Part shown: positions 16,662 to 17,621 of the stretch, piece after piece
How the letters are laid out: each line of letters starts with the position of its first letter
Position numbering within the stretch: position 1 is the first letter of the stretch
Assembly: GCF_048403405.1 (NCBI RefSeq)
Contig: NZ_CP183129.1
Reading direction: 5' to 3' (one strand)
Length of the DNA: 64,000 nucleotides
Source: Escherichia coli
Lineage (GTDB): Bacteria; Pseudomonadota; Gammaproteobacteria; Enterobacterales; Enterobacteriaceae
Notes under the pieces: generated by a model
Database searches by the model: none
Told to the model about the DNA's origin: nothing
The model's input: the letters and a program-made list of their open reading frames with translations, nothing else
Position numbers and translations under genes: made by a program

Positions 16662-17621
16662 TTAATGACCGTTCGGAATATCAGCATCAGTGAGTTGGGT
16701 TGTCGCCAGCACAATCTCACGTTCAAAGCCCTGTTCCAGCATGCGCAAGGCAATTTTAATGGCTTGTTCATGCATACCTTCTACTTTGCCTTTCTGCAAC
16801 CCCTCCAATTTCCCCTCCTGCCAACCTTCAATTTTACCTTCCTGCCAGCCAATTTGATGTCCTTCCTGCCGCAGCCGTTCAGCAATAGTCATTAATCTCT
16901 CCTTTTGTAGTGGTGAACGTTCGGCAATCTCCTCAATAAAACGGGTGAAACGGGAGGTATCGCCGCATTGCAGCAGGTAATTAAACAGCGTTTGTAGCTG
17001 GCTGTCATTAGTGAAGCCTCTAACCAAAAGCGTGGTGATCCTGTCGACCATACCGATTAAATCGCGGTCGCGAATATGCTTTTGAATCAGTTCCAGCAGA
17101 GCTATACGCCGATGTTGCATGATCTCATCGTCAGGTACGATGGTGATATCCACCAACGGAAAAGCTTCGGTGTACAACTGCCGGGCAAGTTGCGGATCGT
17201 CAAACTCATCCAGCCAGTTGAGTGAGTACGGGTAGGGCGAGGTTTCGCCATGATAAAACAGCAATGGCACCACCAGCGGAACTCTGTCATAGCCTTTATC
17301 CAGGTGACGCTGCATGGCGGCAGTGGCATAGCGCATTAGCCGAAAAGCCATATTCTTTTCTGCAGAGCTTTGATGTTCAATCACGCAGTAGATATAGCCT
17401 TCACCGTCGCTGGTTTCCACAGACCACAAAACATCCGAGTAGTAAGCGCGTAAACTTTTTTCAATAAAGCTGGTGGGTTCCAGGCGTAAAGTTTGCAGGT
17501 TGCAAAGCTTGCGCAGCGGCTCTGGTAGATGTATTTCCAGAAAATCCCGAGCGGTTTCGGGTGTGAACATAAAGGTTTTAAACACCGCATCATGCGGGGA
17601 GGAGGTTGTTGATTCGGTCAT
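16662..17621 (-). CDS. rpnB: recombination-promoting nuclease RpnB (transposase_31 / PD-(D/E)XK family)
   Basis: 319-aa ORF; C-terminal tail contains GWQEGK-type repeats and an internal SD-ATG identical to that of ypaA. Confidence 0.8.

Follow-up and report, generated by a model that had tools for sequence, protein, structure and literature searches.

What is the short tandem repeat near the 3′ end of a nuclease-like gene in Escherichia coli, does its number differ between strains, and what would such a difference change? We addressed these questions in a 64,000-nt stretch of contig NZ_CP183129.1 (the window), for which an earlier note had placed GWQEGK-type repeats in the tail of a gene that it named RpnB. 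The repeat proved to be genuine, non-random, and of biological meaning: it is the tetrad hypervariable region of the Rpn proteins, which has been published before, and it lies in rpnE and not in rpnB.

According to Zhong et al. 2023 (PNAS; PMC10400941), rpn genes make small RpnS proteins from internal starts, RpnE_S included, and RpnS blocks the toxic nuclease RpnL. Antitoxin activity was reported for RpnA_S, RpnB_S, RpnC_S, and RpnP2_S, and phage defence for RpnP2. These authors also described hypervariable four-amino-acid repeats that differ from strain to strain, so the idea of a strain-variable repeat is theirs, and a published commentary agrees with their picture. The supplementary text of that paper holds no repeat counts specific to RpnE. 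Our additions are incremental: a corrected gene name, a tally of rpnE and ypaA loci, 24-nt duplications that outpace point mutation, and the near-absence of equal repeat numbers in neighboring copies.

The repeat-bearing gene is rpnE

The gene and the boundary of its locus are as follows.

16662–17621, minus strand: rpnE (yfaD), full-length RpnE_L of 319 aa from ORF translation; a PF04754 PD-(D/E)XK nuclease domain at the N-terminus, the repeat in the C-terminal domain
16442–16468, no strand assigned: GC-rich, terminator-like hairpin bounding the locus between the stop codons of ypaA and yfaU, which converge (10-bp stem with 6 GC pairs; consensus match only)

Profile searching placed PF04754 (Transposase_31, YhgA-like) at residues 8–209 of RpnE_L (E = 4.4e-88, profile positions 1–202 of 203), and no other gene in the whole window belongs to this family. 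RpnE_L scored 707.4 bits with the NCBIfam equivalog model NF007418, above the cutoff of 583; the RpnA model, which also has a cutoff of 583, gave 416 bits and so stayed below it. When the translation was compared with the list of RpnA catalytic residues, D11, D63, E82, Q84, R94, and D165 were all found to be kept, in the contexts H10-D11, S62-D63, I81-E82-H83-Q84, F93-R94, and P163-D164-D165-E166. Upstream of rpnE lies glpC (17814–19079, minus strand), giving the order glpC-rpnE-ypaA-yfaU-yfaV with yfaU and yfaV convergent, and the same neighbors surround rpnE in K-12, UTI89, O157:H7, and other strains. The hairpin at 16442–16468 is probably a bidirectional terminator.

The K-12 MG1655 orthologue, in a matching glpC-rpnE-(ypaA)-yfaU-yfaV context, is annotated rpnE, as is the gene in strain TUM14771, which carries DNA identical to that of the window. 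Kingston et al. 2017 equate RpnB with YfcI and RpnE with YfaD. RefSeq annotation, synteny, NF007418, and this nomenclature therefore all contradict the name RpnB used previously. RpnB (YfcI) is a paralogue of the PF04754 family with its own intragenic RpnB_S; unlike RpnE, it is another gene at another locus, whereas the gene studied here lies between glpC and ypaA-yfaU. Since the gene is annotated rpnE, sits at a different locus, and is the sole PF04754 gene in the window, an RpnB identity is ruled out.

A 24-nt DNA period encodes glycine at every fourth residue

The tract itself was delimited by Tandem Repeats Finder (TRF), tetrad counting, and a self-identity test.

16770–16865, minus strand: tract of G-x3 tetrads, eight units corresponding to four 24-nt DNA periods

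TRF reported a single array at 16776–16847 with a period of 24, 3.0 copies, 70% matches, and a score of 67. Shifting the 96-nt tract against itself by 24 or 48 nt gave identities of 0.64 and 0.60, respectively; elsewhere in the gene the median was 0.26. In 20,000 codon shuffles the value for offset 24 was never reached (p < 5e-5). At offset 12 the tract DNA gave a self-identity of 0.38, which was not significant in the same codon-shuffle test (p = 0.12). Because offset 24 is significant and offset 12 is not, the DNA period is 24 nt (8 aa). In the RpnE protein, glycine recurs at every fourth residue through eight successive tetrads, which constitutes a 4-aa sub-period within the 24-nt period of the DNA. 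The 7–8-aa unit proposed earlier thus matches the period of the DNA, whereas the published unit is the 4-aa tetrad. Neighboring 24-nt units of the window allele are only 64–70% identical, and the tract is therefore not a classic, highly slippage-prone perfect repeat.

The tail peptide quoted in the earlier note is present exactly on the minus strand within 16662–17621. As for the two DNA strings quoted alongside it, ttcctgccagccaat, given as plus strand, was found at 16839–16853, and the second was one base off, the actual string being ctcctgccaacc (16814–16825). Two antisense plus-strand ORFs across the tract (16665–16895 and 16690–16857) were set aside as mechanical by-products of the repeat that nothing supports.

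Glycine at every fourth residue over many turns also characterizes the GxxxG N-terminus of FliH/YscL and the deca-GX3 motif of Yae1-Lto1, and the number of FliH glycine repeats varies between species (PMC2674601). The cellular role of FliH and Yae1 differs from that of RpnE. FliH models matched the tract with E = 1e-7 to 4e-4 and 20–31 bits against cutoffs of 180–293, and Yae1_N with E = 0.072 and 13.2 bits against a cutoff of 27.5. With scores so far below the cutoffs, homology to either was rejected and the likeness is one of pattern only. Other proteins whose repeats of this type differ in number or take part in pairing share the glycine-every-fourth pattern.

The tract lies in a gene within a gene and is duplicated in ypaA

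Three features set the tract within an overlapping reading of rpnE, and two more lie in or concern its downstream duplicate.

16897–16904, minus strand: Shine-Dalgarno-like AAGGAGAG within rpnE, read from the sequence; its GGAG ends 6 nt before an internal ATG
16662–16892, minus strand: RpnE_S, encoded in frame within rpnE (76 aa, ending IPNGH) and a putative intragenic antitoxin (translation from the internal ATG; literature)
16782–16841, minus strand: five tetrads (60 nt) without a counterpart in ypaA of the same strain or in K-12 rpnE (spacing 243 versus 183 nt; K-12 span 239 versus 299 nt)
16476–16649, minus strand: ypaA (RpnE_Ss), encoding 57 aa; the RpnE_S segment duplicated in tandem as a free-standing copy and preceded by a Shine-Dalgarno sequence of its own (GGAG 16656–16659), from the ORF and segment alignment
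16587–16622, minus strand: ypaA tetrad tract, three units by tetrad counting

The signal for an in-frame internal start in rpnE, comprising a Shine-Dalgarno sequence and an ATG, spans 16904–16890 with the ATG at 16892. The tract begins at residue 10 of RpnE_S and sits in the C-terminal domain common to RpnE_L (319 aa) and RpnE_S. For K-12, Zhong et al. 2023 (PMC10400941) documented internal initiation with ribosome profiling and SPA tagging.

Directly after the rpnE stop codon (TAA, 16662–16664) the duplicate begins. A 70-nt segment containing the Shine-Dalgarno sequence, the ATG, and the first tetrads is repeated at the start of ypaA with 97% identity, and the next 102 nt with 83%, which identifies ypaA as a tandem duplicate of the RpnE_S segment. 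It matches NF007418 at positions 244–308. The two segment spacings, 243 and 183 nt, are 60 nt apart, so that rpnE and ypaA differ by exactly five tetrads. The expectation that the two copies differ in repeat number was borne out, with eight tetrads in rpnE and three in ypaA, and translation of the 57-aa ORF (16476–16649, minus strand) recovered the single IGWQEGM that had been noted there. Pfam DUF4351 (PF14261), which Zhong et al. tied to free-standing RpnS genes, had no match in either ypaA or RpnE_S at E ≤ 0.1. YpaA is described by Zhong et al. (PMC10400941) as a separately encoded copy, RpnE_Ss, and both it and RpnE_S were detected in K-12.

In every genome that we fetched, RefSeq/PGAP calls ypaA a pseudogene fragment ('incomplete; missing N-terminus') starting after the rpnE stop. 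The ORF is intact, with its own Shine-Dalgarno sequence and ATG, in 20 of 20 two-copy loci, and Zhong et al. detected the protein in K-12; the pseudogene call looks like a systematic annotation artefact. Some lineages (L009, L011, and related loci) have GAGATTGATG rather than GAGATTAATG as the spacer between the ypaA Shine-Dalgarno sequence and its ATG, and this single-base difference beside the start codon might affect YpaA translation.

The layout of rpnE in the window is that of the Rpn systems of Zhong et al.: PF04754, an internal Shine-Dalgarno sequence with ATG, an identical 11-residue RpnS start, strain-variable tetrads inserted 8–20 residues past the RpnS methionine, and a downstream RpnSs (ypaA). 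We found no difference in kind, only in alleles, which are 8 + 3 here and 3 + 4 in K-12.

Tetrad number varies between strains and stays in frame

A 299-nt query over the rpnE tail found matches in 5,420 of 5,426 complete E. coli genomes. Spans were read from a systematic sample of 60 genomes, and 23 E. coli loci were fetched for tetrad counts. Spans in the 60-genome sample took the values 239, 251, 275, 299, 311, or 335 nt and differed from one another by multiples of 12. The 23 loci carried 3, 4, 5, 6, 8, 9, 11, or 13 tetrads in rpnE and 3, 4, 5, 7, or 9 in ypaA; the pair (rpnE, ypaA) is (3,4) in K-12 and (8,3) in the window, and UTI89 has 8 in rpnE. About 55% of the 60 sampled genomes have three rpnE tetrads, about 15% have eight, as in the window, and about 10% have eleven. 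Twelve metagenome loci, obtained by a DNA-pattern scan for the Shine-Dalgarno–ATG junction, showed the same allele types, and are too few for a census.

The variation foreseen in the earlier note is therefore a fact of both copies, at 3–13 tetrads for rpnE and 3–9 for ypaA, and the invariant count that it had named as refuting is clearly not what the 60-genome sample and the 23 loci show. The small-protein region changes in length as proposed, RpnE_S ranging over 56–96 aa and YpaA over 57–81 aa among the 23 loci, in all of which every allele is in frame and both ORFs are intact.

Strain-to-strain differences in the copy number of an intragenic tandem repeat could also mark a phase-variable contingency locus, at which changes in repeat number alter the reading frame or promoter spacing and switch a gene on and off. 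The unit here is 12 or 24 nt, not the 1–8 nt expected of a contingency repeat, and more than 40 tracts differ by multiples of 12 nt, with every ORF open and no frameshifted allele among them. We rejected this extremely improbable reading for want of out-of-frame alleles in these tracts.

Recent 24-nt duplications and exchange between the copies

Three loci bear on how tetrad number changes. L016, L017, and L022 have zero SNPs over ~1776 aligned nt, yet they differ by exact 24-nt tandem duplications: GAAGGTAAAATTGAAGGCTGGCAA is doubled in rpnE of L022, and GAAGGTAAATTAGAAGGTTTGCAR is doubled in ypaA of L017. Since these duplications occur in zero-SNP backgrounds, slippage or unequal exchange outpaces point substitution at this locus. 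Exact local duplications of 24 nt are what slipped-strand mispairing, or unequal exchange between sister chromatids, would be expected to produce. Differences of one tetrad (12 nt) are also present, in the form of hybrid units such as EGLH.

Slippage, the only cause offered in the earlier note, agrees with these duplications and is one candidate among others, since rpnE and ypaA also exchange sequence by recombination or gene conversion. In about a third of the sampled genomes there was no separate ypaA, and rpnE formed one fused copy ending in the ypaA-type C-terminus (...DRD.VLAATQLSEADLAANNH); the fusion alleles L010 (O157:H7), L013, and L014 carry three or five tetrads. This fused rpnE indicates a deletion through recombination between the two copies. 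In strain BHUCD02 (L035; NZ_CM183444.1 2356612–2358977), the rpnE tail is a hybrid (GIDREIV) and the two copies have the same tract, which suggests gene conversion from ypaA into rpnE.

These cases raise the question of whether such exchange between the rpnE tail and ypaA, by recombination or gene conversion, or else the activity of the Rpn nuclease itself, is the main driver of number change in place of replication slippage. Unit types GAAGGTAAATTA and GAAGGTTTGCAG are common to rpnE and ypaA, and Zhong et al. speculate on an involvement of RpnL in repeat change, both of which favor the idea along with the fused copies and L035. The changes in zero-SNP backgrounds, however, are perfect local 24-nt tandem duplications for which the other gene offers no donor of that copy length: EGKI-EGWQ is doubled in L022 rpnE and single in ypaA of that strain, as slippage or unequal sister exchange would leave it. 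We regard a leading role for inter-copy exchange or the nuclease as unlikely, while keeping it as a serious competitor; slippage or unequal exchange and inter-copy recombination are not mutually exclusive.

Tetrad count as a proposed determinant of partner pairing

What, then, would the tetrads do? We consider it very likely that rpnE (yfaD) is an Rpn toxin/intragenic-antitoxin module and the tract its hypervariable repeat of four amino acids (G-x3), whose tetrad count would set partner pairing. A functional effect of repeat number is established only for the paralogue RpnC: an extra tetrad in RpnC_S or RpnC_L kills neutralization unless both have it (Zhong et al. 2023, PMC10400941). Our own analysis established that the tract is repetitive, that an internal start signal is present, that the segment is duplicated, and that tetrad number varies between strains and has changed recently; that RpnE works like its Rpn paralogues we infer by analogy with them.

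Under the proposed mechanism, the same DNA would be read twice in one frame, as the C-terminal domain of RpnE_L and as RpnE_S from the Shine-Dalgarno sequence and ATG at 16892. In the structure of RpnA_S (PDB 7TH0), three helices form a bundle that dimerizes through its long first helix (Zhong et al. 2023, PMC10400941), and by analogy the tetrads would lie in a long first helix that serves as the dimer and toxin-binding interface, each tetrad adding perhaps ~6 Å of helix. The tetrad count would then set the partners, as RpnE_S would always match its own RpnE_L and proteins with another count would not; YpaA of the window (three tetrads) is predicted not to pair with RpnE_L (eight tetrads). The tract expands and contracts in frame, probably via slipped-strand mispairing or unequal exchange, and also swaps sequence with the neighboring copy.

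For the structural part of this proposal we turned to alignment and modeling. RpnE_S residues 1–13 and 38–72 align to residues 1–13 and 10–44 of 7TH0, a weak match (E = 0.16), and this two-part alignment places the tetrads within helix 1, inserted behind residue 13. In an AlphaFold2 monomer of RpnE_S (11-sequence alignment), the tract (residues 11–36) had a pLDDT of ~50, with most of 18–36 below 50, and was not modeled as helix; helices were placed at 29–53 and 58–65, with pLDDT above 80 over residues 41–70. A GS-linked homodimer had a mean pLDDT of 44 and was unusable. The helical reading of the Gly-rich window allele would thus draw on homology and on the predictions of Zhong et al.

The low confidence and missing helix of the AlphaFold2 model would suit a neutral low-complexity linker, that is, a slippage-prone, tolerated spacer whose length has no functional consequence. 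The allele distribution largely tracks lineage, which also agrees with neutrality, and K-12 RpnE was inactive in all assays of Kingston et al. 2017, lacking toxicity, SOS induction, and recombination; the whole-gene constructs of that study would have co-expressed RpnE_S. Against a neutral linker, the G-x3 pattern and the alternating K[IL] and [WL]Q positions are kept in every unit of every allele despite synonymous differences (GAA GGT versus GAG GGG), a one-tetrad mismatch abolishes RpnC_S activity on RpnC_L, and repeats of this kind are also found in Rpn proteins from distant phyla, the last two points being from Zhong et al. Neutrality of tract length is accordingly a reading to which we give little credence.

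For a tetrad count that sets pairing, Zhong et al. (PMC10400941) cite as precedent the TAEL tetrads in HsdS of the type I systems EcoR124I/II. There, as in Rpn, an in-frame change of a single four-residue repeat in a helical spacer alters specificity. The TAEL repeats set the spacing of DNA-recognition domains (N6 versus N7), whereas protein–protein pairing is proposed for Rpn, and the two are non-homologous. The rpnE repeat would by this account be a proposed specificity determinant of a gene-within-a-gene toxin-antitoxin/antiphage module, and it is this role that makes rapid in-frame length change biologically meaningful.

Neighboring copies rarely share a tetrad number

Tetrad numbers of rpnE and ypaA were equal in 0 of the 19 sampled two-copy loci. 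From the marginals of the sample, chance would give ~1.2 equal loci among 19, and the probability of observing zero is ~0.3. Synthetic equal-number queries against the 5,420 genomes found (3,3) in one genome, the putative gene conversion case L035 described above, and did not find the (4,4) or (9,9) combinations; L035 is the sole equal-number genome found. We make no claim that equal numbers are avoided: one equal among ~13 distinct configurations is at chance level, and genome counts are confounded by clonal descent.

Given the near-absence of equal numbers, YpaA (RpnE_Ss) could be more than a redundant antitoxin. It might be an orthogonal, expressed cassette whose recombination with rpnE, as in the fusion alleles and the gene conversion of L035, would swap the C-terminal specificity module of the toxin. 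Alternatively, YpaA might act on a different partner, such as a phage factor for which it would be a decoy. We put this forward as a speculation with a rather small chance of being right.

Two metagenome contigs depart from the usual rpnE–ypaA arrangement. In SKEH01015850.1 (L030, 438–614, plus strand), an 11-tetrad rpnE tail is followed by a divergent RpnS-like ORF of 57/58 aa (MTIAERLQEVGRRKGKREGQHAEALRIAQRMLDDGIARETVV...) that replaces ypaA. This ORF is ~50% identical to RpnE_S, had no megablast match among the 5,426 E. coli genomes, and lies in a downstream context that is also different; it could be a different Ss cassette, derive from another species, or reflect a chimeric contig. In OEQM01000798.1 (L031, minus strand from 136), an RpnS-like ORF continues past ...RMLEQGI with 80-odd unrelated residues to form a 140-aa ORF, a read-through that could represent a rearrangement, an insertion junction, or an assembly chimera.
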